Shown here: in pieces, positions 4,223 through 18,948 of the stretch
How the letters are laid out: every line of letters begins with the position of its first letter
Position numbering within the stretch: the stretch's first letter is position 1
Source of the DNA: Nitrospirota bacterium
GTDB lineage: Bacteria; Nitrospirota; Nitrospiria; JACQBW01
NCBI GenBank assembly: GCA_016194305.1
Contig: JACQBW010000008.1
Location: 85,684-149,683 of the forward strand
DNA: 64,000 bases
Direction: 5' to 3'
Translations under genes and position numbers: made by a program
Notes under the pieces: model-generated
Seen by the model: the letters and a program-made list of their open reading frames with translations, nothing else
Database searches by the model: none
Told to the model about the DNA's origin: nothing

Positions 4223-4246
4223 TTGTTTGTAATAGGAGAATGTTGC

Positions 4247-5500
4247 ATGAAGGCATGTATCATAGTACCCCCCTCTGAATTTTTAGATGATGATAAAGTA
4301 TTTCCGGCTTTGGGGCCCTGGTATATCAAGCGATATGTCGAAGAGAACTCCATTCACCAGGTCGATGTTTTGACAAATCCTCCGTTCGCCTATTTAGAAA
4401 GATATGATGTGGTTGGATTCAGCGTGACAACGCCTCAATATAATTATGTCGACAGGATTTTGAAGGATCTTCCAACAGGGATGACCACCGTATTGGGAGG
4501 TCCACATTGTCGTACTTATACGGTTGAACCGGGGACTTTCACACATGTCATTAGAGAAGATGGATGCAAACCTTTTCTGAATATCTTAAACGGGAATGAA
4601 CCTGGTAAAGAATCGGACGACAATGACCAGCTTCCCCACAGAGACATGACCTACCATGAATATAAATATGTTTTAGATGGCCGAAAATCGACTAATGTAA
4701 TTACCAGCAGAGGGTGTCCTCTATTGTGTTCTTTTTGCGAACATGCGAGGACGCCGGGTAGATTTAAAAGCAAAAAAGCGGTTGCGAAGGAAATTCAGGA
4801 ATGCAAGGATCTGGGGTTTGAAGGAGTGATGTTTTTTGATGACCTGTTCTGTTTGAATACCCAGCGGGTACGGGATATGTGCGAGGTCATCAAGCCACTC
4901 GATATCAAATTTAGATGTTTTGCACATGCTTTAAGTTTCAACAGGAAAATGGCAGAGCTCCTGGCAGGTGCGGGATGTGTTGAAATCGGTTTTGGCGCTG
5001 AGCATGCGTCGCAAAAAATATTGGATAACGTCAATAAAAAGACCAAAGCGATCCAGAACTATCAGTTGATCGAAAGAGCACATGAGTTTGGTCTCCGAGT
5101 CAAAGCATTCCTGATGATCGGACTCCCAGGAGAAGACCATGAGACCGTTAAAGAGTTGGAACAATTTGTCTTGAACTCCAATGTTGATGACTTCGACCTC
5201 TGTGTTTACTATCCTTTTGTCGGTACCGAGATTGCTGACTATCCTGAGAAGTTTGACATACAGATCAAAGATGATCAGAGTGGGGCCTATTATAAAGGAA
5301 AGCTGGGGTCCTCTTCGGTAATCGTTCGGACAGAAGCACTATCTTCTGAAGAGATCAAATATTGGCAAAAGAGGATCTATTCTCATAATAAGAGATGGAA
5401 AGGGGGAATGAAGTCCACGCTTGGAATTAAAATTGTGGATGAACCCTCTGCCGCAGATGTTTGCAGTTCCAGTAATGTGAATGGGTTCCCAGCAATTTAG
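4247..5500 (+). CDS. Radical SAM enzyme with an N-terminal B12-binding-like domain, inserted between flgH and flgI
   Basis: CPLLCSFCEH matches the CxxxCxxC radical-SAM cluster motif. The likely start is the ATG at 4247, preceded by an AGGAG ribosome-binding site; the ORF track begins at a TTG at 4223. The ORF directly abuts the flgH stop. Confidence 0.7.
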   Translation: MKACIIVPPSEFLDDDKVFPALGPWYIKRYVEENSIHQVDVLTNPPFAYLERYDVVGFSVTTPQYNYVDRILKDLPTGMTTVLGGPHCRTYTVEPGTFTHVIREDGCKPFLNILNGNEPGKESDDNDQLPHRDMTYHEYKYVLDGRKSTNVITSRGCPLLCSFCEHARTPGRFKSKKAVAKEIQECKDLGFEGVMFFDDLFCLNTQRVRDMCEVIKPLDIKFRCFAHALSFNRKMAELLAGAGCVEIGFGAEHASQKILDNVNKKTKAIQNYQLIERAHEFGLRVKAFLMIGLPGEDHETVKELEQFVLNSNVDDFDLCVYYPFVGTEIADYPEKFDIQIKDDQSGAYYKGKLGSSSVIVRTEALSSEEIKYWQKRIYSHNKRWKGGMKSTLGIKIVDEPSAADVCSSSNVNGFPAI

Positions 5501-8060: not shown

Positions 8061-9710
8061 ATGTCCAGCATTTCGAATATTTTCAACATAGGCGTCTCGG
8101 CACTGCTGGCGAATCAGAATGCGTTGGCGATTACCTCCAATAATATTGCTAACGTCAATACGCCGGGATATTCCAAAGAAACCGCATTTTTTAATGAGAC
8201 GACCCCAGTCAACGGTAATCCTGGTCAAATAGGAACGGGCGTTCAAATTGCCCAGATACAGAGAATGGTTAATCAGTTTCTCAATAATCAGGTGACGCAG
8301 GAGCAATCGAGTCTAGGTCAATACGACATTATGCAGAGCACTCTTTCGAACGTTCAGAGTTTTTTCAGCGACAGTCAGGGAACGGGTATTAATCAAGCCC
8401 TATCCGATTTCTTCAATGCTTTTCAGGATGTATCAAACAATCCCCAATCCCTCCCGGCGCGTCAGGCACTGATTCAAAAGGGAAATATACTTTCACAGAT
8501 TTTCAGTAACACCAGTGCCAACTTGACGCAGATTGAGAATAATCTGAATAGCCAGATCAGCGGAGCGATCAACGATGCAAATGCTTTGGCGGGAGAAATC
8601 GCCGGATTAAATGGTCAAATTGCCCGTGCTCAACTTTCAGGGCAATCTCCCAATGCACTGCTTGACCAGAGAGATCAGTATCTCAATCAGTTGGCTTCCA
8701 AGTTAAATATTAGTACCTTTGTTGATGCCTCTGGCCAGGTCACGGTCATGGTGGGAGGAGGGAATCCGCTTGTAGAAGGAAATACTGCCCACTCTTTAAC
8801 GGGAGTAGCCAATCCGGACAATTCCGGATATTTCGATGTGGCCTATGCGCCGGCGAATGGGACTCCGATTACATTGAACGGATCGATTACCGGCGGCAAT
8901 ATCAAAGGACTTCTTGATTTAAGAGACACGACGGTGTCGGGAGACCTTACCCAGTTAGATATTCTAGCGGCTGGAATTATTAATGAAGTCAATCAACAGC
9001 ACCAGGCGGGCTACGGGCTGGACGGAACCACCGGAAATCTCTTCTTTTCTCCCCTTTTGCCCAATGCGACCGCTTTGAGTACGAATGCCGGAACAGCAGT
9101 TGTGACTGCATCGGTTGTGACCCCGGCATCGTTGACTTTTAATCCCTATCAGCTCACTTTCTCCGGCGGGAATTATACTTTGACCAATACGGTGAGTGGA
9201 GCCTCCACATCGGCCGCTTACGGAGGCGCGACAACCGTCACTTTCGAGGGATTTCAGATCGCCATCGGTGCGGGAGCGGCAAATGGAGATATTTTCAATC
9301 TCAGTGAAACCCAGGGGGTCTCGGTGAGCATGACGGTTTCACTGACCGATCCCAATAAGGTTGCCGCGGCATCCGCTCTGGCTGGACTTCCCGGAGATAA
9401 CGGGAATGCGCTTTTTCTCTCCGGAATATCCGGAAAGGCGATTACGGCGTTTGCCGGCGAGACGGTTCAAGGATATTATAGTAATCTAACGGGAACCATC
9501 GGATTGCAGGCACAATCCGCGCAGAGGAATTTTTCTGCGGAAAAGATTTTGAAAGGCCAATTGTTTAGCCAACAGCAAGAGGTTTCGGGCGTTTCACTCG
9601 ACGAAGAGATGTCGAATCTGATCAATTTTCAAAATGCCTATGCAGCCTCTGCCAAACTGATTACGATGGCCGACGAAATTTTTCAAACCTTGATTGCTAT
9701 GAAACATTAA
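8061..9710 (+). CDS. flgK: Flagellar hook-associated protein 1 FlgK
   Basis: N-terminal rod/hook family motif (ITSNNIANVNTPGYS) and C-terminal FlgK block. Confidence 0.9.
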   Translation: MSSISNIFNIGVSALLANQNALAITSNNIANVNTPGYSKETAFFNETTPVNGNPGQIGTGVQIAQIQRMVNQFLNNQVTQEQSSLGQYDIMQSTLSNVQSFFSDSQGTGINQALSDFFNAFQDVSNNPQSLPARQALIQKGNILSQIFSNTSANLTQIENNLNSQISGAINDANALAGEIAGLNGQIARAQLSGQSPNALLDQRDQYLNQLASKLNISTFVDASGQVTVMVGGGNPLVEGNTAHSLTGVANPDNSGYFDVAYAPANGTPITLNGSITGGNIKGLLDLRDTTVSGDLTQLDILAAGIINEVNQQHQAGYGLDGTTGNLFFSPLLPNATALSTNAGTAVVTASVVTPASLTFNPYQLTFSGGNYTLTNTVSGASTSAAYGGATTVTFEGFQIAIGAGAANGDIFNLSETQGVSVSMTVSLTDPNKVAAASALAGLPGDNGNALFLSGISGKAITAFAGETVQGYYSNLTGTIGLQAQSAQRNFSAEKILKGQLFSQQQEVSGVSLDEEMSNLINFQNAYAASAKLITMADEIFQTLIAMKH

Positions 9711-9719
9711 CGAGGGACC

Positions 9720-10601
9720 ATGCGGGTTACCAATCAGATTATTTACGACAACTTAATCGAGTATCTTCAGAGAAATAACGATGCACTTTTCCGGCCTCAG
9801 CAGGAGATTGCCACAGGGAAAAAGATAATTCTGCCATCGGATGATCCTCAGGGTAATTCTCAGGTGGTTAATCTTGATGCGATGGGAGGAAAACTCAATC
9901 AATATTTGACGAACCAGAATGTGGCACAGAGTTTTATGGAAGCAACGAATACCGTATTGGATGAAGCTTCTAAAATCCTGGCAGATATCAAGAATGTTGC
10001 ACTGAACGCCGCTTCAGGCTTAAGTTCTCAAAATCAACAATACGATTCAACACTCCTTGCCGCGGATTTACAATCTCTTCTTGATGTGGCCAACACCCAG
10101 TATCAAGGAGAGTATCTTTTTGCCGGATTTAAAAATGATACTTCTGCATATAATAATGCCGGGGTCTACCAAGGGGATGGAGGGCAGATAGGGGTGCAGA
10201 TTGCACCGGGAGCTACGATTCAAAGAAATCTTGCGGGACAGGATGTTTTTGGCACCTCGGCGGGAGGGGTCGATATTTTCGCTACAATCCAGGCGCTTCA
10301 AACGGCAATTACAGGGAATAATTTGGCTGGAGTTCAGGCGACGATATCTGCTCTTGATTCGGCGCGGAAGCAGATTCTAAATAGCCAGGGAATCTTAGCG
10401 ACCCGTGTGACAAATCTCCAAACGACCCGAGATTATGTCAAGAGACTTTCGGAGACAACCACAAACCTTCTATCCCAAACTCAAAGTGTCGATATGAACG
10501 CCGTCATTACGGAGCTTAATCAGCAGATGACCTCACTGCAGGCGGTTCAGGCGATGGCTTCAAAAGTCATGAATCTTAGCCTCGTCAATTTTCTGAAATA
10601 A
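9720..10601 (+). CDS. flgL: Flagellar hook-associated protein 3 FlgL
   Basis: Flagellin-like N and C termini; follows flgK. Confidence 0.8.
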   Translation: MRVTNQIIYDNLIEYLQRNNDALFRPQQEIATGKKIILPSDDPQGNSQVVNLDAMGGKLNQYLTNQNVAQSFMEATNTVLDEASKILADIKNVALNAASGLSSQNQQYDSTLLAADLQSLLDVANTQYQGEYLFAGFKNDTSAYNNAGVYQGDGGQIGVQIAPGATIQRNLAGQDVFGTSAGGVDIFATIQALQTAITGNNLAGVQATISALDSARKQILNSQGILATRVTNLQTTRDYVKRLSETTTNLLSQTQSVDMNAVITELNQQMTSLQAVQAMASKVMNLSLVNFLK

Positions 10602-10804: not shown

Positions 10805-13408
10805 ATGAAAATTAAATCCAGAAACACACTTTCTTGCACGTGCGGAAGTGGTAAGAAATTTAAAAAATGTTGCGGAGCAATCCAAAAGAATGTGACAGAA
10901 ACCGGGACTGACTTAGAGATATCTGAAAAATTCAAAAATGCAATCGTCTATCATCAAGCAGGAGAATTGGATAAAGCGGAAGCGTTTTACAGGGAAATAC
11001 TGGAGGCAGATCCGCGACAACCGGATGTCCTTTTTAATCTCGGAGGCATTTGTGAAGGAAAGGGCGAACTGGGTAAAGCAAAGTCCTTTTATGAAAAAGT
11101 CCTTGAGAATAGACCTGACTACTATACCGTATATAACAATTTGGGGGCTGTTTATTACAAGGAAGAAAGTTATTTAGAAGCGCGGAGTTATTACGAAAAG
11201 GCCCTGTCGTTTAAACCTGATTTTGCCGAAGCTTGGAACAATCTCGGTATGGTATTTAAATCAGAGGGAAAGTTCAAGGAGGCCGAAGAATTCATTAAGA
11301 AGGCGATCTTTCTCAAGCCTGACTATGCCGATGCGTATAACAATTTGGGTGCAACCTATTTAGGACACGGAGATAGGAGCAAGAAGGAAACAGCGATAGC
11401 CTGTTTAGAAAAGGCAATAAAGATAAATCCCCGTCACGCCGGAGCGTACAATAATATTGGAAATATTTTAAGATTTGATGAAAGGCTCGAAGAGGCAGAA
11501 TCTTATTATTTAAAGGCAATCACAATTGACCCTAAGTTTCCCGATGCCTACTCCAATTTGGGAAATATTTACGAGCTTCAGGGAAGGGCTGAGGAGGCGG
11601 TTGAGAAATATAGAAAGACACTTGAACTGGCACCGAAACATGTCATTGCTCAGAGCAATCTTCTTCTTGCTCTAAACTATTCAGAAACTAGCGTTCCCAG
11701 TGCAGTCTACTCTGAACACCTTCTTTTCGAAAAGAATTTCGGGGAACAATTTAAGTCGGAAACGAAGCCTTATCTGAACGATCTTTCTCCGGATCGGAAA
11801 TTAAAAATCGGTTATATTTCTCCCGATTTCAGGACTCATTCGGTGGCGTACTTCATCGAGCCGGTCCTGGCCAATCACGACAGTCAGAAATTTGAGATTA
11901 TCGGTTATTCCAACAGTCAGGCATGGGATCAAATGACCAGGCAACTTCATTCTTATGTTGACAAATGGCGCAATATTTCGGGCATTCCGGTCCATATCGT
12001 AGACGAAATGATCAGAATGGATCAGATTGATATCTTAATTGACTTGAGCGGACATACGGCAGGAAACCGACTGCTTGTTTTTGCCCGGAAACCCGCCCCC
12101 GTTCAGGTAACATGGCTTGGCTATCCCAATACCACTGGTTTAAGGACGATGGATTATCGAATTACCGATCGTTTTGCAGATCCAGTCGGCGTGGCGGAAC
12201 AATTTCATACAGAACAACTCATCAGGCTCCCTAAATCATTTTCATGTTATCGACCGCCAGACGAAGGGCTAGAAGTGGAAGATACTCCGGCCATAGAAAA
12301 TGGATTTATTACATTTGGTTCATTTAATAATTTTTCCAAAGTTACACTGAGAGTTATTCAGTTGTGGGCTAAGGTTTTAAGATCTGTTCCTGATTCTCGC
12401 CTGATTTTGAAAACCGGTGGATTAAATGAAAAAAGTCTAAGAGACAGGGTCTACGATCAATTTGCATCTATGGGAGTCTCAGCCAATAGACTTGAGTTAT
12501 TGGGAAGAGACGCCTCACGGGAGGAACATTTTAGACAATATCGCCGTCTGGATATCGGATTGGATCCTTTTCCCTATAACGGGACGACGACAATTTGCGA
12601 GTCACTTTGGATGGGAGTGCCGGTGGTGACTCTTGAAGGACAAACGCATGCCGGCCGTGTGGGGGTGAGTCTTATGAATACCCTGGAGCTGACCGAATTA
12701 ATCGCCCGATCGGAAAACGAATATGTGGATATTTGTGTGCGTCTTGCAAATGACCTGGTGCAATTAAGTCAGTTACGGGCGGGGATGCGCTCGAGGATGA
12801 AGGCTTCTCCTTTAATGAATGAGAAGGAGTTTACTCAATACCTGGAAGACGCATACAGAAATATCTGGAAAGATTATGTGCGAAGACAGGGCCTGATGTC
12901 TGAGCGTTCTGAAATGAAAAATGTGGCTGATCCTGAAGTCAATGTCAGGATAGACGAGGCTCAAAATCTCCTGAAAGAAGGACGTTTAGACCAGGCAGAA
13001 ATTCTTTATCGGGAAATCTTGACGAACCACTCAAAGAATCCAACCGTGCTCCATGACCTGGGAATTGTTGCGTTCCATAAAGGACAATTGGCCCGGGCCG
13101 CGGATTTCTTTATCAAAGCATTGGCATTTAAGCCCGATTATGCCACCGCTTATAATAATCTTGGTGCGGTCTGTGATGAAATGGGGCGCCAGGAAGATGC
13201 CAAGGCGTGTTATGAGATGTCGCTGGTCTTGGTGCCGAATTATGCCGAAGCCCACCACAATCTGGGAGTACTGTACAAGAAACAGGGAATCATCAATATG
13301 GCGATGGACTTTTTCCAGAAGGCTCTGGATTTAAATCCCGAATATCTTGAAGCACGCAAGAATATAGAAGAGTTAAAGAGGATGACATCGGAGCCCTCAT
13401 CCGTTTGA
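10805..13408 (+). CDS. TPR-repeat protein with an N-terminal SEC-C metal-binding motif and an O-GlcNAc-transferase-like (GT41-type) C-terminal domain; candidate flagellin O-glycosyltransferase
   Basis: CTCGSGKKFKKCCG matches the SEC-C motif. There are at least 8 TPR units, and the C-terminal half resembles a GT41 catalytic region (GYISPDFRTHSVAYF..., GSFNNFSKVT...). Confidence 0.7.
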   Translation: MKIKSRNTLSCTCGSGKKFKKCCGAIQKNVTETGTDLEISEKFKNAIVYHQAGELDKAEAFYREILEADPRQPDVLFNLGGICEGKGELGKAKSFYEKVLENRPDYYTVYNNLGAVYYKEESYLEARSYYEKALSFKPDFAEAWNNLGMVFKSEGKFKEAEEFIKKAIFLKPDYADAYNNLGATYLGHGDRSKKETAIACLEKAIKINPRHAGAYNNIGNILRFDERLEEAESYYLKAITIDPKFPDAYSNLGNIYELQGRAEEAVEKYRKTLELAPKHVIAQSNLLLALNYSETSVPSAVYSEHLLFEKNFGEQFKSETKPYLNDLSPDRKLKIGYISPDFRTHSVAYFIEPVLANHDSQKFEIIGYSNSQAWDQMTRQLHSYVDKWRNISGIPVHIVDEMIRMDQIDILIDLSGHTAGNRLLVFARKPAPVQVTWLGYPNTTGLRTMDYRITDRFADPVGVAEQFHTEQLIRLPKSFSCYRPPDEGLEVEDTPAIENGFITFGSFNNFSKVTLRVIQLWAKVLRSVPDSRLILKTGGLNEKSLRDRVYDQFASMGVSANRLELLGRDASREEHFRQYRRLDIGLDPFPYNGTTTICESLWMGVPVVTLEGQTHAGRVGVSLMNTLELTELIARSENEYVDICVRLANDLVQLSQLRAGMRSRMKASPLMNEKEFTQYLEDAYRNIWKDYVRRQGLMSERSEMKNVADPEVNVRIDEAQNLLKEGRLDQAEILYREILTNHSKNPTVLHDLGIVAFHKGQLARAADFFIKALAFKPDYATAYNNLGAVCDEMGRQEDAKACYEMSLVLVPNYAEAHHNLGVLYKKQGIINMAMDFFQKALDLNPEYLEARKNIEELKRMTSEPSSV

Positions 13409-13426: not shown

Positions 13427-16400
13427 ATGGAAAGATGGCAATTAAGGACCCCAGTCGCTTTTATGATATTCAATCGACCTGATACGACCCAATTCGTGTT
13501 CGAGGAGATTCGTAAATCAAAACCACCCAAGCTGTTAGTCATTGCTGACGGTCCACGTCCCGGGAAACCAGACGAAGCAGAGAAATGTCGTGCGGCAAGA
13601 GCAATTATTCAGCGCATCGACTGGAAATGCGAAGTATTAACAAACTACTCTGATATCAATTTAGGTTGCAAGAGACGCGTCTCAACCGGTTTGGATTGGG
13701 TTTTTGAATTGGTAGAGGAGGCGATAGTACTGGAAGATGATTGTCTCCCTGAACCCAGCTTCTTTCGATTTTGTGAAGATCTGCTCAAAAAATATCGTCA
13801 TGATGAACGGATTGCCCAAATCAGCGGGGATAATTTTCAATTTGGAGAGAACGGGACCGAATACAGTTATTATTTCTCGAGAATTAATCATTTGTGGGGA
13901 TGGGCCTCTTGGCGAAGAGCCTGGAAAAAGCATGATGTATCGATGTCGAAATGGCCTGAAGTAAAGAGCAAGACAGGTTTAATTGACTGGCTTGGAAATC
14001 GGGAACTGGCCAATTTCTGGGAAGGGGCATTTGATAGCGCTTTCCTGGGAAAGATCGATACCTGGGATTTTCAATGGGTTTTCTCTTCCTGGTTGCATAA
14101 CATGTTAACGATTCTCCCCAATCAGAATTTAATTTCAAATATCGGTTTCAGGGAGGACGCCACCCACACCAAAGGTCAGAGCCTGTTTGCGAACATGAAG
14201 ACAGCTCCAGTTCTTTTTCCTCTCAAGCACCCTCCGGAGATTATTCGAAATGTTGCAGCGGATTCTTTTACCGAAAGGATGATGTTTCTCCCGAAAGCAC
14301 CGGTTCAAATGGAGTCGAATCCAAAATCGGATTCTCCTGTGGTCTGTAAAGTCTGTTCATCTAGATCAAGATTCCTAAAAAATGCATCCATGTTAAAGGT
14401 TCACTTGGTAGATTATTTTAAATGTGAAAACTGCGGATTTATTCAGACAGAAGAGCCATTTTGGTTAAATGAGGCTTATTCCAGTGCAATTACGAGCAGT
14501 GATACGGGTCTGGTGAGAAGAAATATTGAGCTTTCGAAAATGTCGAAATTGATTTTATCTAATTGTTTTGAGAAAAACGCCCAATTTGTCGATTATGGCG
14601 GAGGATACGGTCTTTTTGTCCGTTTGATGAGGGACTATGGTTTTGATTTCTACTGGATTGACCAACATTGTCCAAATCTTTTTGCCAAGAACTTTGAAGC
14701 AGATTGCCAAAACGGGAAGCGGTACGAGGTATTGACGGCATTTGAAGTTTTTGAACATCTGGTTAATCCCATGGATGAGATAGAAAAAATGCTGAAACTT
14801 TCAAATACCATTTTCTTTAGCACAGAACTGATTCCCTCTCATCATCCGAAACCGGGAGAATGGTGGTATTTTGGGCTTGAGCATGGCCAGCATATCTCTT
14901 TCTATACTCTGAGAACTTTGGATGCGATTGCCAGAAAATTTAATCTGAACCTCTATTCTAATGGGACTTCGCTACACATCTTAACGGACAAAAATCTTAA
15001 AGGTCCCTTGGAGTTTTCCGAGGGGATCTGGAAATCATTGCAAAGTCATGATATTGAGTGGTATGGACCTCACCGGATGGACAAGATTGTATTGGGCGTA
15101 TCCGGAGGAAACGAAACTCTCCAAAGTGTTCAAGCCATAATTCATTCCGCACGAACCTTTCTTCAGAATGGACACCTCGATGAGGCAGAAAAAATCTACA
15201 GAGACATTCTGAATGTGCATTCTCAAAACAGCGAAGTTTTGCATGATCTTGGAATTATTGCATTTCAAAAAGGCAAACTTGTTTCGGCATCCGATTACTT
15301 TCTTAAGGCCTTAAATATAAAACCCGATTTTGCAATAGCCCATAATAATCTGGGGGTTGTCTTGAATGAAATGGGGAAGAAGGAAGAGGCTAAAATCTGT
15401 TATGAAGTGGCTATTTCTTTAAAACCGGATTACGCAGAAGCTTATTTTAACCGAGGCATGATTTCCAGAGATCAGGGCCGTCATGACGAAGCGATGATCT
15501 CATTTCAAAAGGCAGTCGGGTTTAAGTCGGACTATGTTGAAGCACTCAAAGAACTGGAAGAATTAAAAAAGAAAGTTCAAAGTCCGAGATTGCTAAAACC
15601 AGTGCCGGCGATAAGTCCGGGCATGGATCCGGGTTTGAAAAAAAGAATGGCTTTTGTGGATTTGGCCTTTCATCAAAGAACAAAAAGCACGCTGGAATTG
15701 ATTGAGGTTTTCCAACGCCATTTCCAGGTCGACATATACTGGGACAGCGGAAATCTTGATTTTCAGCAGATTGCCAGACAAAGCTATGATACGGTCGTTT
15801 TTTTTCAAAAGATCTATGGGATGAGGAAATTAGATTCGCTTAACGCTAAAAATATTATTTTTATCCCGATGTATGATGATGTGATGGGAATCACAGATGC
15901 ATACTGGAGGCAGTTTGGTCATGTTCAGTTCCTTAGTTTCTCAAGAACGCTTCATGAGAAACTTCTTCACCTGGGGTTAAGATCTCGGCATATTCAATAT
16001 CATGTTCCATCCCCAAAGCTTCCAAGTCCAGAGCCGTCCTGTAAGGGCCTCTCCGGGTTTTTCTGGCAAAGGACCAACTATATCCGGTGGAGTACGATCA
16101 AGATCCTGATTCAGAATGTTTCGATTGAAAAATTTCACCTCCACTCCGCGGTCGATCCCCCGAACCATGTTTTTGAAAAACCTTCAGATGAAGATATCAA
16201 AAAATACAGCATCACCATCAGTGATTGGTTTCCCGGAAAGGAGGAGTATTTGACTCTCGTTGCCTCCGCCAAACTTTTCTTTGCCCCAAGGCCCTTCGAG
16301 GGAATAGGGATGTCTTTCCTGGAGGCTATGGCCATGGGAAAATGTGTGATTGCCCCGGATCTACCCACGATGAATGAATACATTCAGGATGGCGAAAATG

Positions 16401-16549
16401 GTCTTTTGTATGACCCGAAAAATCCCGTTCCCCTTGATTTTAGGCAGGCTGATAATATAGGAATGAAGGCGAGAGTTTCGGCTGAAGAAGGGTATCGTAC
16501 CTGGAAAGAGGCCGAAAAAGGTTTAATTCAATTTATAACGGATCCGTAA
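13427..16549 (+). CDS. 1040-aa multidomain protein: GnT-I-like GT-A domain, zinc-ribbon plus class-I SAM C-methyltransferase, TPR repeats, and a GT-B (GT4-like) domain; candidate flagellin glycan assembly enzyme
   Basis: GT-A DxD-like motif LEDDCLP and WGWASWRRAW; zinc ribbon CKVCSS...CENCGF followed by VDYGGGYGLF (SAM binding); TPR block; C-terminal GT4 motif EGIGMSFLEAMAMGKCVIAPD...ENGLLYD. Confidence 0.7.
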   Translation: MERWQLRTPVAFMIFNRPDTTQFVFEEIRKSKPPKLLVIADGPRPGKPDEAEKCRAARAIIQRIDWKCEVLTNYSDINLGCKRRVSTGLDWVFELVEEAIVLEDDCLPEPSFFRFCEDLLKKYRHDERIAQISGDNFQFGENGTEYSYYFSRINHLWGWASWRRAWKKHDVSMSKWPEVKSKTGLIDWLGNRELANFWEGAFDSAFLGKIDTWDFQWVFSSWLHNMLTILPNQNLISNIGFREDATHTKGQSLFANMKTAPVLFPLKHPPEIIRNVAADSFTERMMFLPKAPVQMESNPKSDSPVVCKVCSSRSRFLKNASMLKVHLVDYFKCENCGFIQTEEPFWLNEAYSSAITSSDTGLVRRNIELSKMSKLILSNCFEKNAQFVDYGGGYGLFVRLMRDYGFDFYWIDQHCPNLFAKNFEADCQNGKRYEVLTAFEVFEHLVNPMDEIEKMLKLSNTIFFSTELIPSHHPKPGEWWYFGLEHGQHISFYTLRTLDAIARKFNLNLYSNGTSLHILTDKNLKGPLEFSEGIWKSLQSHDIEWYGPHRMDKIVLGVSGGNETLQSVQAIIHSARTFLQNGHLDEAEKIYRDILNVHSQNSEVLHDLGIIAFQKGKLVSASDYFLKALNIKPDFAIAHNNLGVVLNEMGKKEEAKICYEVAISLKPDYAEAYFNRGMISRDQGRHDEAMISFQKAVGFKSDYVEALKELEELKKKVQSPRLLKPVPAISPGMDPGLKKRMAFVDLAFHQRTKSTLELIEVFQRHFQVDIYWDSGNLDFQQIARQSYDTVVFFQKIYGMRKLDSLNAKNIIFIPMYDDVMGITDAYWRQFGHVQFLSFSRTLHEKLLHLGLRSRHIQYHVPSPKLPSPEPSCKGLSGFFWQRTNYIRWSTIKILIQNVSIEKFHLHSAVDPPNHVFEKPSDEDIKKYSITISDWFPGKEEYLTLVASAKLFFAPRPFEGIGMSFLEAMAMGKCVIAPDLPTMNEYIQDGENGLLYDPKNPVPLDFRQADNIGMKARVSAEEGYRTWKEAEKGLIQFITDP

Positions 16550-16646: not shown

Positions 16647-16792
16647 GTATTGTTGAGGCAGAAGATCAAGATCGGAAATGAGGTGAAAGCTAGAAAAAGA
16701 GATAGATCGAATGCCTTGTTTTTGAACAAAAATACTTAATGAACCCAAATTGGCGAGAATTGCCAATTCAATCCTAGAAAAGGAGAAACACC

Positions 16793-17740
16793 ATGGCAGA
16801 TATTTCATTAACCGCTGGTATGCGGGCGTCGGTTCTTTCGTTAGAGACAACGTCTTCGTTATTTGATACGACCCAATTACGGTTATCTACCGGACGAGCA
16901 GTCAACTCGGCATTGGACGATCCGATCAAATATTTTTCGGCTCAGAATAATAATTTTACGGCAAGTGGTTTAAACAATCTTAAATCAAGCATGAACGAAG
17001 CGTTACAGGTGGTGTCGGCTGCCAACAATGGTATCACCGCTGTGACCTCCTTAATCAAAAACGCAATCGCCATTGCTCAACAGGCTCAAGCGGCGTCTGC
17101 GACGGATTATACAACTCAGGCCACGCTCCTGACCCAATATATCGGGATTTTGAGCCAGATCAACTTCGCCGGTGCGGATTCGAAATACGGCGGGAAAGAT
17201 TTGATCAATAATGGAACGGCATATAGTTCCTCTACCGCGACAGCTTCAGACAGTGTGACGGTGACTTTCAGCACAACCAACACCAACTCCGCCATTACCA
17301 TTTCAGGTGTCGATTCCACGATTGTAGGTCTTGGCCTATCAGTTGGAGGTTTTACGCTTGCAACGGGGAATGAAACGACCGGAACGGGTGCGGTGACCAC
17401 AGGGGCAACCCTATCCTGGACCACAACCGCCAGCTCAAACAATAGCTGGGCGACTGCGGCGAATATATCGACAGATATTACGAAATTGAACAGCGCGTTA
17501 ACCACCCTTCAGACAACCGCAAAGACCCTATCGACCAGCAACGCGGTGATTCAGGCCAGAATCGATTTTACCGCCAATATGGTCAGTACCTTACAGCAAG
17601 GGTCTGATAAGCTGACACTGGCGGATATGAATCAGGAAGGAGCCAACATGTTGTCCCTGCAGACACAGCAGGCATTGGCTACAAACTCGATGAGATTGGC
17701 CTCTCAAGCCTCCCAGAGCGTCTTGAGATTATTCTCATAA
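16793..17740 (+). CDS. fliC: Flagellin (alpha-proteobacterial-type, with a Ser/Thr-rich central region)
   Basis: RLSTGRAVNSALDDP in the N-terminal D0/D1 segment and a conserved C-terminal LSLQTQQALATNSMRLASQASQSVL. The central region is S/T-rich. Confidence 0.85.
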   Translation: MADISLTAGMRASVLSLETTSSLFDTTQLRLSTGRAVNSALDDPIKYFSAQNNNFTASGLNNLKSSMNEALQVVSAANNGITAVTSLIKNAIAIAQQAQAASATDYTTQATLLTQYIGILSQINFAGADSKYGGKDLINNGTAYSSSTATASDSVTVTFSTTNTNSAITISGVDSTIVGLGLSVGGFTLATGNETTGTGAVTTGATLSWTTTASSNNSWATAANISTDITKLNSALTTLQTTAKTLSTSNAVIQARIDFTANMVSTLQQGSDKLTLADMNQEGANMLSLQTQQALATNSMRLASQASQSVLRLFS

Positions 17741-17801: not shown

Positions 17802-18182
17802 ATGACATCGATTAAAAATATCGAACTCGGAATTCTGAACATCAATCCATTGGGAAAGGTTATTATCCCCAATCCTGTTCAAGCCAGGGATCAGAAAGCC
17901 GGTGAAAATCTGAGCGATAATAAAATTTTTGCTCCTGATATGATTAACGATACGGTTGACCTCGTTTCAAAAAGCCGACTGATCTTCCCCATTAAAGATA
18001 CGACGGGCGCAATACTTGAAAAGATGAAGGCTCAACTTGAGGCTGGAATAAGAGGAACAGAACCATTGGATCCTGCCGCCGCAAACGCCAAAAGTTTTCA
18101 GATCGGGACGGAACTGACACGCCAGCCTGATAAGAATCTGGTACAGACCCGTTTTGATTTTCTACGTTTCCTGATTGGATAG
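17802..18182 (+). CDS. Hypothetical protein co-transcribed with flbT and flaF
   Basis: 126-aa ORF directly abutting flbT; no family recognised. Confidence 0.4.
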   Translation: MTSIKNIELGILNINPLGKVIIPNPVQARDQKAGENLSDNKIFAPDMINDTVDLVSKSRLIFPIKDTTGAILEKMKAQLEAGIRGTEPLDPAAANAKSFQIGTELTRQPDKNLVQTRFDFLRFLIG

Positions 18183-18575
18183 ATGCCACTTAAGGTTACC
18201 TTAAAGCCGAAGGAACGTCTTTTCATCAATGGCGCGGTTATTTTCAATAATGAAGCGAACCGGATTAGCCTGATTGTCGTTAACGACATACCGATTTTAA
18301 GAGAAAAAGATATTTTAACCGAAGAGAGTGCGAATTCCCCCTGCAAACGGATCTATCTTTCCGTTCAGTTGATGTATATGGATAAGGAACGGCTGGCCGA
18401 ATATCAGAAGAAATATTGGAGGCTGGTCGGGGAGGTCATCAAGGCGGCACCAAGCACCACAAAAATGATTCATAAAATTAGCGAGCAGATTTTAATAGGG
18501 CAATTTTATAAAGCTTTAAAACTTTCTCATAAATTAGTTCATTACGAAATGGAGTTAATCAATGCCGGTAAATAA
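18183..18575 (+). CDS. flbT: Flagellin synthesis regulator FlbT
   Basis: N-terminal MPLKVTLKPKERLFINGAVIFNN...NDIPILREKDIL resembles Caulobacter FlbT. Confidence 0.7.
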   Translation: MPLKVTLKPKERLFINGAVIFNNEANRISLIVVNDIPILREKDILTEESANSPCKRIYLSVQLMYMDKERLAEYQKKYWRLVGEVIKAAPSTTKMIHKISEQILIGQFYKALKLSHKLVHYEMELINAGK

Positions 18576-18948
18576 TCCCTTCAGTGCCTATCAAGAGGTG
18601 GCGAAAAAGACCCTAGATGGTCCCGCTCTTGAAGCCTATGTATTGAATAGAGCCGCTCAGCTCCTGATTGAGTGTAAAAATCAGTGGAATGAGTCCGGAC
18701 ATCAAGAACGGCTTGATAAGGCGCTCGGATATAACCAGAAGTTATGGACCTTTTTTCAGGTGGAGCTCGCCAATCCGGAACATTCTCTTCCGAAAAAGAT
18801 ACGTGAAGATATCTTAAGCCTCTCCATTTTTATTGATAAAAGAATTTATGAAGTCATAACAGAACCGGATCCTGGCAAACTGGAGGTGATGATCAATATT
18901 AACCGAAATATTGCCAACGGCCTTCAGGGGAACGCGATCGGGTCCTGA
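18562..18948 (+). CDS. flaF: Flagellin synthesis regulator FlaF
   Basis: About 128 aa; pattern like FlaF (…KLWTFFQVELANPEHSLPKKIREDILSLSIFIDKRI); overlaps flbT. Confidence 0.65.
   Translation: MPVNNPFSAYQEVAKKTLDGPALEAYVLNRAAQLLIECKNQWNESGHQERLDKALGYNQKLWTFFQVELANPEHSLPKKIREDILSLSIFIDKRIYEVITEPDPGKLEVMININRNIANGLQGNAIGS

Follow-up and report, generated by a model that had tools for sequence, protein, structure and literature searches.

One open reading frame (ORF) in the flagellar gene cluster of a Nitrospirota bacterium encodes a GT-A glycosyltransferase, a methyltransferase, a tetratricopeptide-repeat (TPR) block and a GT-B glycosyltransferase as a single polypeptide of 1040 residues. The gene, called the fusion below, lies in a 64,000-nucleotide stretch of DNA (the window; GenBank assembly GCA_016194305.1, contig JACQBW010000008.1), between a TPR-GT41 glycosyltransferase gene and a flagellin gene. 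The fusion is a real protein, and the description given in an earlier note, made from the DNA letters and their translations, is largely correct. We think it fairly probable that the protein is a soluble, cytoplasmic, multi-enzyme builder of a flagellin glycan, acting downstream of the GT41 enzyme. Its architecture is rare and built from known kinds of parts, and the type of system is already known, namely multi-domain flagellin glycosyltransferases encoded in variable glycosylation islands. What stands out most is that a TPR block copied from the neighbouring gene has apparently taken the place of a coiled-coil spacer.

Four modules in one polypeptide

The fusion ORF occupies window positions 13427-16549 on the plus strand, stop codon included, and runs from an ATG start codon through 1040 codons with no internal stop. 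A ribosome-binding site (AAGGAG) lies 7 nt 5' of the start codon, and 18 nt separate that codon from the stop codon of the GT41 gene on the same strand. The intact frame, Pfam matches for three modules (methyltransferase, TPR and GT-B signature, all above Pfam's own thresholds) and AlphaFold2 models of both ends establish one genuine ORF with four folded modules. All motifs quoted in the earlier note were located: LEDDCLP at residues 102-108, WGWASWRRAW at 157-166, CKVCSS at 307-312, CENCGF at 333-338, VDYGGGYG at 388-395 and the E-x7-E pair at E958 and E966. An exact-sequence look-up of the protein returned no record, and the polypeptide contains no membrane-associating segment.

The two ends of the protein, where sequence left the assignment uncertain, were modelled separately with AlphaFold2, each with an alignment of homologues. 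Module 1 (13427-14296, plus strand; residues 1-290) has no Pfam match at E ≤ 1 and no NCBIfam match, and searches of the PDB with phmmer and with hmmsearch using a 21-sequence profile found nothing. The model of these residues (predicted local distance difference test (pLDDT) 90.9, predicted TM-score (pTM) 0.90) is a GT-A domain that is GT13-like by fold. Its top seven Foldseek matches in the PDB are POMGnT1 and GnT-I, both of family GT13, at E-values of 1e-11 to 2e-9 (POMGnT1 5ggi, 1e-11; GnT-I 1fo8, 2.5e-10), followed by GnT-II (5vcr) and SpsA. The GnT-I-like character earlier read from the motifs therefore holds at the level of the fold. The module carries an EDD motif (E103-D104-D105; nt 13733-13741, plus strand) and a WGWAxW motif (residues 157-162), and E103, D104 and D105 as well as W157, G158, W159, A160 and W162 are invariant in 21 homologues of 37-78% identity. 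The module would be metal-dependent and probably inverting.

The GT-A family to which module 1 belongs is large, is 50-60% conserved and has no Pfam or NCBIfam model, and for these reasons merits a family definition of its own. In the cyanobacterial proteins P0066, P0074, P0085, P0089 and P0093-P0098 (approximately 1261-1271 residues) it is fused to DUF5672 and GT41. The partnership of GT-A and GT41, which are neighbouring genes here, thus recurs in fused form in non-flagellated organisms.

Module 2 (14318-15061, plus strand; residues 298-545) joins a zinc ribbon to a class-I S-adenosylmethionine (SAM) methyltransferase, as had been proposed. The Cys4 ribbon (C307-x2-C310 ... C333-x2-C336; 14345-14434, plus strand) was read from the sequence; across 16 homologues the pair C333/C336 is invariant and C307/C310 nearly so. 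Pfam Methyltransf_23 matches residues 379-511 above threshold, with an E-value of 9.7e-21 in the whole protein and 1.1e-21 in the isolated module. VDYGGGYG (388-395) is SAM motif I, and D92, G96, G98, D115, E143, E146 and H147 are invariant in the module alignment (A3 numbering).

Module 3 (15125-15574, plus strand; residues 567-716) consists of about 4.5 TPRs, matched by several Pfam TPR families at an E-value of 1e-19, and is the proposed flagellin-docking element. Its paralogue is the TPR block at the C-terminus of the neighbouring GT41 protein (residues 712-864 of that protein), with which it aligns over 153 residues without a gap at 51% identity, against only 30-39% for the other TPR blocks of the GT41 protein. 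The same likeness between fusion and GT41 neighbour recurs in a related locus, L083.

Module 4 (15638-16546, plus strand; residues 738-1040) is a compact GT-B domain of the GT4 type. The model of residues 725-1040 (316 residues; pLDDT 93.3) shows a complete, compact, two-lobed GT-B fold, and its best Foldseek matches are all GT4 enzymes: PglA, PimA, BshA, MshA, WbnH, TarM and SdgB, with E-values of 1e-10 to 1e-7 and TM-scores of 0.55-0.69. Pfam Glyco_trans_1_4 and Glycos_transf_1 match residues 930-1000 at 48-50 bits, compared with cut-offs of 26-27. Both glutamates of the E-x7-E motif (E958 and E966; nt 16298-16324, plus strand) are invariant in 71 sequences. The TPR block and the GT4-like domain described earlier are thus both genuine, and the GT-B module is probably retaining.

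The flagellar locus and the proposed substrate

The flagellar setting described in the earlier note is equally genuine. On the plus strand the genes run in the order flgF, flgG, flgA, flgH, a radical-SAM gene, flgI, flgN, flgK, flgL, the TPR-GT41 gene, the fusion and flagellin, and after these an unknown ORF, flbT, flaF, a response regulator gene and a PilZ gene; on the other strand are fliJ, fliI, fliH, fliG and fliF. Upstream, the glycosylation slot is bounded by the gene of the flgL-like hook-associated protein (9720-10601, plus strand; Pfam Flagellin_N), directly after flgK. The GT41 gene (10805-13408, plus strand; 867 residues) matches Pfam Glyco_transf_41 at an E-value of 3e-62 in addition to TPRs, and its product is laid out as a SEC-C motif, a TPR block, an OGT/SPINDLY-like GT41 domain and a second TPR block. 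Its N-terminal SEC-C-type Cys motif reads CTCGSGKKFKKCC. Flagellin (16793-17740, plus strand; 315 residues; Pfam Flagellin_N) is the presumed substrate. Serine and threonine make up 29% of its residues overall and 35% of the central residues 111-240, against 10-18% in the other proteins here.

The fusion stands between flgL/GT41 and flagellin, followed by flbT and flaF, in four related genomes. In the loci L001, L083 and L084 the GT41 gene is kept upstream of it and the flagellin gene lies immediately 3'. The metagenome-assembled genome (MAG) GCA_044450265.1 (L090) also retains GT41, and the place of the fusion is taken there by a nucleotidyltransferase, a nucleoside diphosphate (NDP)-sugar dehydratase and a gene with a genuine PF08421 domain at its start. 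Beside the flagellin of a more distant Nitrospirae genome lie genes of nonulosonic-acid type. Since GT41 is kept while the genes that follow it differ, GT41 is the conserved element, and a variable glycosylation island seems to extend from it to flagellin. The G+C content is 42.5% in the fusion and 43.8% in the GT41 gene, compared with 48-50% in the core flagellar genes; the methyltransferase and TPR modules are lowest, at 39-40%.

Synteny and analogy make an assembly line on flagellin plausible. Precedents discussed below (FlmG, Clostridioides difficile GT2 and GT41-methyltransferase proteins) favour as the best reading one in which the GT41 protein primes and the fusion docks, extends and O-methylates. 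The OGT-like GT41 neighbour would place the first sugar on serine or threonine of flagellin in the cytoplasm, before export. The fusion would dock on flagellin through the TPR block that it shares by paralogy with the C-terminus of the GT41 protein, and the GT-A and GT-B modules would each add one further sugar to the glycan. The methyltransferase would O-methylate a sugar, probably the terminal cap. We infer flagellin as the substrate, its binding by the fusion, the order of the steps, the donor sugars and the linkage chemistry.

Several observations weigh against this route. The fold matches of the GT-A module have moderate TM-scores (0.49-0.57), the module has no sequence-level link to GT13 in Pfam, NCBIfam or the PDB, and no residue could be assigned as its catalytic base. 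Chlamydiae, which are not flagellated, also have members of the GT-B family, so module 4 is not specific to flagella. The 64-kb window contains no genes for nucleotide-sugar or nonulosonic-acid biosynthesis. In L083 a protein at the identical gene position, P0004, is without the zinc-ribbon/methyltransferase module, its GT-A domain running directly into the TPR-GT-B half; together with a frameshift inside the methyltransferase of L084 (see below), this suggests that methylation is dispensable or that the copy in question is inactive. Finally, the TPR-GT-B half of the fusion could itself initiate the glycan in place of GT41.

The relatives of the three catalytic modules bear on both the substrate and the origin of the architecture. 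GT-A and methyltransferase are contiguous in cyanobacterial multi-domain proteins of 1300-1460 residues, where they align as one block at 52-56% identity, and they are adjacent in Leptospira, Flavobacteriia, Planctomycetota and Anaerolineales. Methyltransferase-GT-B fusions of 615-747 residues exist, as does one GT-A-GT-B fusion, P0099. In the locus L085 a Wzt protein with a Wzt_C carbohydrate-binding domain is followed by a stand-alone GT-A homologue (43% identity) and by the methyltransferase-GT-B fusion P0047. The resulting order of GT-A, methyltransferase and GT-B is that of the window protein, without the TPR block. Stand-alone GT-B homologues lie no more than 8 kb from a Wzt_C transporter in all three loci checked (L087-L089), beside other methyltransferases.

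The position held by the TPR block in our protein is occupied differently in these relatives. Longer non-flagellar fusions (P0036, P0040, P0374 and P0099) have a coiled-coil-like repeat there and no TPR; one such spacer repeats LTKELHSSHEQVGV, and a basic amphipathic stretch follows the spacer in three of these four proteins. In P0047 no more than a short linker, which is not coiled, joins methyltransferase and GT-B. A coiled-coil spacer and an adjacent Wzt_C were each seen among the homologues, in different proteins. These arrangements suggest that the GT-A/methyltransferase/GT-B cassette stems from polysaccharide loci of the ABC-transporter type and that its coiled-coil spacer was replaced by a flagellin-targeting TPR. 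More tentatively, and as a possibility well short of probable, a whole chain-capping cassette may have been captured, and a TPR copied from the GT41 next to it may have replaced the coiled coil and so re-targeted the cassette to flagellin; the result would be a substrate-docked, template-free assembly line that puts a defined, methyl-capped oligosaccharide together on flagellin itself, in the cytoplasm.

The homologues of all three catalytic modules occur mostly in ABC-transporter polysaccharide loci, and this lends some weight to a different explanation, that the protein acts on a cell-envelope polysaccharide (lipopolysaccharide or exopolysaccharide) and that its flagellar position is incidental. 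Against it stand the position between flgL/GT41 and flagellin, conserved in four genomes, the presence of a TPR paralogous to the neighbour's where the polysaccharide-locus homologues have coiled-coil and amphipathic segments, and the absence of wzm and wzt genes adjacent to the fusion. We regard an envelope substrate as unlikely.

The wider locus has further features. A gene for a B12-binding radical-SAM protein resembling class-B methyltransferases (4223-5500, plus strand) lies between flgH and flgI; its best NCBIfam similarities, to the PhpK and HpnJ families, all fall far short of the family cut-offs. L001 and L084 share the insertion; the Nitrospiria loci L090 and L091, syntenic in other respects, lack it. 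The flbT and flaF genes (18183-18948, plus strand) belong to this Nitrospirota flagellar cluster and occur in its relatives too. Their products are usually regarded as alphaproteobacterial flagellin regulators. On their account an alphaproteobacterial source of the window was considered, and the FlgI matches rule it out: the closest named FlgI homologues come from Nitrospiria MAGs (86%) and from Candidatus Manganitrophus of the Manganitrophaceae (approximately 72%).

Just 5' of the flagellin ribosome-binding site lies a palindrome or stem-loop, AATTGGC-N7-GCCAATT (16748-16768, plus strand), which is kept in three relatives with compensatory changes in its arms (ATTTGGC/GCCAAAT in L001, ATCTGGC/GCCAGAT in L083). 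The element might serve as an operator or be acted on by translational control of the FlbT/FlaF type. A sigma-54 promoter at 16750-16765 was rejected, as the spacing from GG to GC falls 2 nt short and the sequence behaves as a palindrome with compensatory changes; scans for sigma-70 promoters and terminators did no better than on shuffled sequence. The gap between flagellin and flbT holds an ORF of 126 residues (17802-18182, plus strand) without a Pfam or NCBIfam match, which has 126-128 residues in L001, L083 and L084. Between the GT41 gene and the fusion, L001 has an extra ORF of 156 residues (9503-9973) with a weak FkbM-type (Methyltransf_21) match and no counterpart in the window; it may be what is left of a further tailoring gene in the variable slot. 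L073, from Lachnospiraceae, was considered as a flagellar locus and set aside: it is a cluster for sugar activation with an FkbM methyltransferase, and no flagellin was found among the ORFs scanned.

The methyltransferase module and the integrity of the gene

The earlier note took the ribbon and methyltransferase for an NDP-sugar C-methyltransferase, and this part of it is not upheld. Enzymes of the NDP-hexose C-methyltransferase family (TylC3/TcaB9 type) are accompanied by a C-terminal domain, PF08484, which is absent at E ≤ 1 from our protein and from all 16 homologues examined. Our protein is likewise unmatched at E ≤ 1 by PF08421, the N-terminal Cys4 zinc-binding domain of the family, and the window holds no NDP-sugar genes. 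A C-methyltransferase that makes a branched-chain donor for one of the two glycosyltransferase modules would agree with the Cys4 ribbon ahead of the Methyltransf_23 core, with the PF08421 matches of six of the 16 homologues (all sub-threshold, best E-value 0.033) and with the genuine PF08421 gene in the equivalent slot of the related Nitrospiria genome L090. In L090, however, that gene is flanked by a nucleotidyltransferase and a 4,6-dehydratase, and the window has neither. A PDB profile search with the module also yielded only generic methyltransferases, at E > 0.02, and a search with its single sequence gave no informative match. Taken together with the missing PF08484 domain, these results leave the C-methyltransferase improbable.

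Sugar methylation is the likelier role of the module. Members of its family occur next to glycosyltransferases, or joined to them in one protein, in cyanobacteria that lack flagella and in polysaccharide loci, which favours the methylation of a glycan; we infer O-methylation rather than C- or protein methylation. Flagellin itself is methylated in other bacteria, for example at lysine by FliB in Salmonella, and a module that sits in a TPR-bearing protein beside flagellin might act on the flagellin protein in the same way. This is at odds with the occurrence of the family beside or within glycosyltransferases of non-flagellated cyanobacteria and of Wzt-type loci, and with the alignment of GT-A and methyltransferase as a single block, which again points to a glycan substrate. 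Protein methylation is accordingly a quite improbable role.

Relatives of the fusion speak to the integrity of the gene. P0001 (1055 residues), found in two Joint Genome Institute (JGI) metagenomes in a flagellar locus syntenic from flgH to fliH, carries the same uninterrupted fusion and is 67-68% identical across residues 1-1038, so an orthologue with the identical architecture exists. Beyond these relatives, phmmer over 1.84 billion representative proteins found no further four-module protein, only fragments from the clade and methyltransferase-spacer-GT-B proteins. The statement that the architecture is not that of a characterised enzyme is in keeping with this, as none turned up in the protein scans or in the literature.

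A second relative is closer and differs in its reading frame. In L084, a Logan assembly with 90% DNA identity to the window, the gene is read as two separate ORFs (439 and 606 residues). The split stems from one extra base in a GGGGGGGAAA run (a G7A3 homopolymer) at about 9985-9995 of L084, inside the methyltransferase and opposite window position ~14716, where the window has CAAAACGGGAAG and no long run. Deleting the extra base gives a full-length ORF, which marks the intact form of the window as the normal state. Either a sequencing error in the homopolymer or a frameshift of recent origin, possibly phase-variable, accounts for the split. Phase-variable tracts are known in the flagellin-glycosylation genes of Campylobacter. 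Between the window and the repaired L084, synonymous and non-synonymous codon differences number 43/20, 19/21, 17/7, 22/19 and 77/34 by module, that is, mostly or equally synonymous in each, a pattern that points to a gene under selection.

It is highly improbable that separate genes were joined into the long ORF by an error of assembly or sequencing, or that the ORF is a decaying pseudogene with dead modules: the split gene of L084 would fit such an explanation, but it comes down to a single base, the fusion turns up independently in other assemblies, uninterrupted as P0001 in two metagenomes, the catalytic motifs (EDD, SAM motif I and E-x7-E) are conserved without variation, and synonymous changes dominate.

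Comparison with known systems

Among flagellin glycosylation systems, those based on nonulosonic acids (Maf, FlmG) and those of a few pathogens have been studied well. Our literature search found no paper on flagellin glycosylation in Nitrospirota. How soluble O-glycosyltransferases choose their substrates is an open question, for which this locus offers a compact and testable case: a conserved TPR-GT41 gene is followed by a variable slot, filled here by one polypeptide with three catalytic activities and a docking module paralogous to that of its neighbour. If the proposed re-targeting is true, a swap of spacers would have moved a glycan-building cassette from a lipid-linked polysaccharide to a protein acceptor. 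This would be a natural example of acceptor specificity reprogrammed by the exchange of one non-catalytic module, and useful for glyco-engineering.

The best structural matches of module 1, GnT-I and POMGnT1 of family GT13, have, as it does, an EDD motif where a beta-strand ends, and POMGnT1 extends a protein-linked O-mannose. In contrast to the bacterial module, these are eukaryotic Golgi enzymes, and no sequence similarity between them and module 1 was detected.

The O-polysaccharide terminators of Klebsiella and Escherichia coli combine methyltransferase and glycosyltransferase modules with a coiled-coil ruler and a Wzt that has a carbohydrate-binding domain (PMC11231755; PMC3482155). E. 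coli O9a WbdD and K. pneumoniae O7 ORF6 are, like the fusion, single polypeptides with methyltransferase and glycosyltransferase modules, a likeness drawn from their descriptions. The coiled-coil-like spacers that most of the longer methyltransferase-GT-B and GT-A-GT-B homologues carry resemble the ruler layout of these terminators. In the fusion, however, TPRs replace the coiled coil, a membrane-associating segment is lacking and wzm and wzt are not adjacent.

In the variable flagellin glycosylation islands of enterobacteria, SPINDLY/OGT-like GT41 enzymes are encoded beside flagellin genes, and most of them have a methyltransferase domain, as described by bioinformatics only (PMC4875605). The methyltransferase is fused to GT41 itself in those islands, whereas in the window GT41 is a separate protein and the methyltransferase lies between GT-A and TPR-GT-B.

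A flagellar counterpart of the N-terminal half is the type-B GT2 of C. difficile (CDR20291_0242), a GT-A-methyltransferase fusion acting on flagellin that is proposed to add two rhamnoses and to methylate them (PMC5207246). As in the fusion, a GT-A domain is joined to a SAM methyltransferase, and the gene lies beside fliC. It differs in having a Pfam GT2 domain and a PF08241 methyltransferase, in carrying neither TPR nor GT-B, and in its Gram-positive host.

For the C-terminal half the counterpart is FlmG of Caulobacter crescentus and Brevundimonas subvibrioides, whose TPR domain binds flagellin and whose GT-B domain determines which donor is used (PMC7591256; bioRxiv 10.1101/2022.03.25.485807). 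FlmG has two domains and 596 residues and transfers pseudaminic or legionaminic acid, whereas the fusion has an additional GT-A domain and methyltransferase, a GT-B domain that is GT4-like, and a window without nonulosonic-acid pathway genes around it. FlmG is soluble; like the fusion, it has its TPRs N-terminal to GT-B and is encoded with flagellar genes. By layout alone, the TPR block (567-716) and GT-B domain (738-1040) of the fusion, in their flagellar locus, correspond to FlmG.

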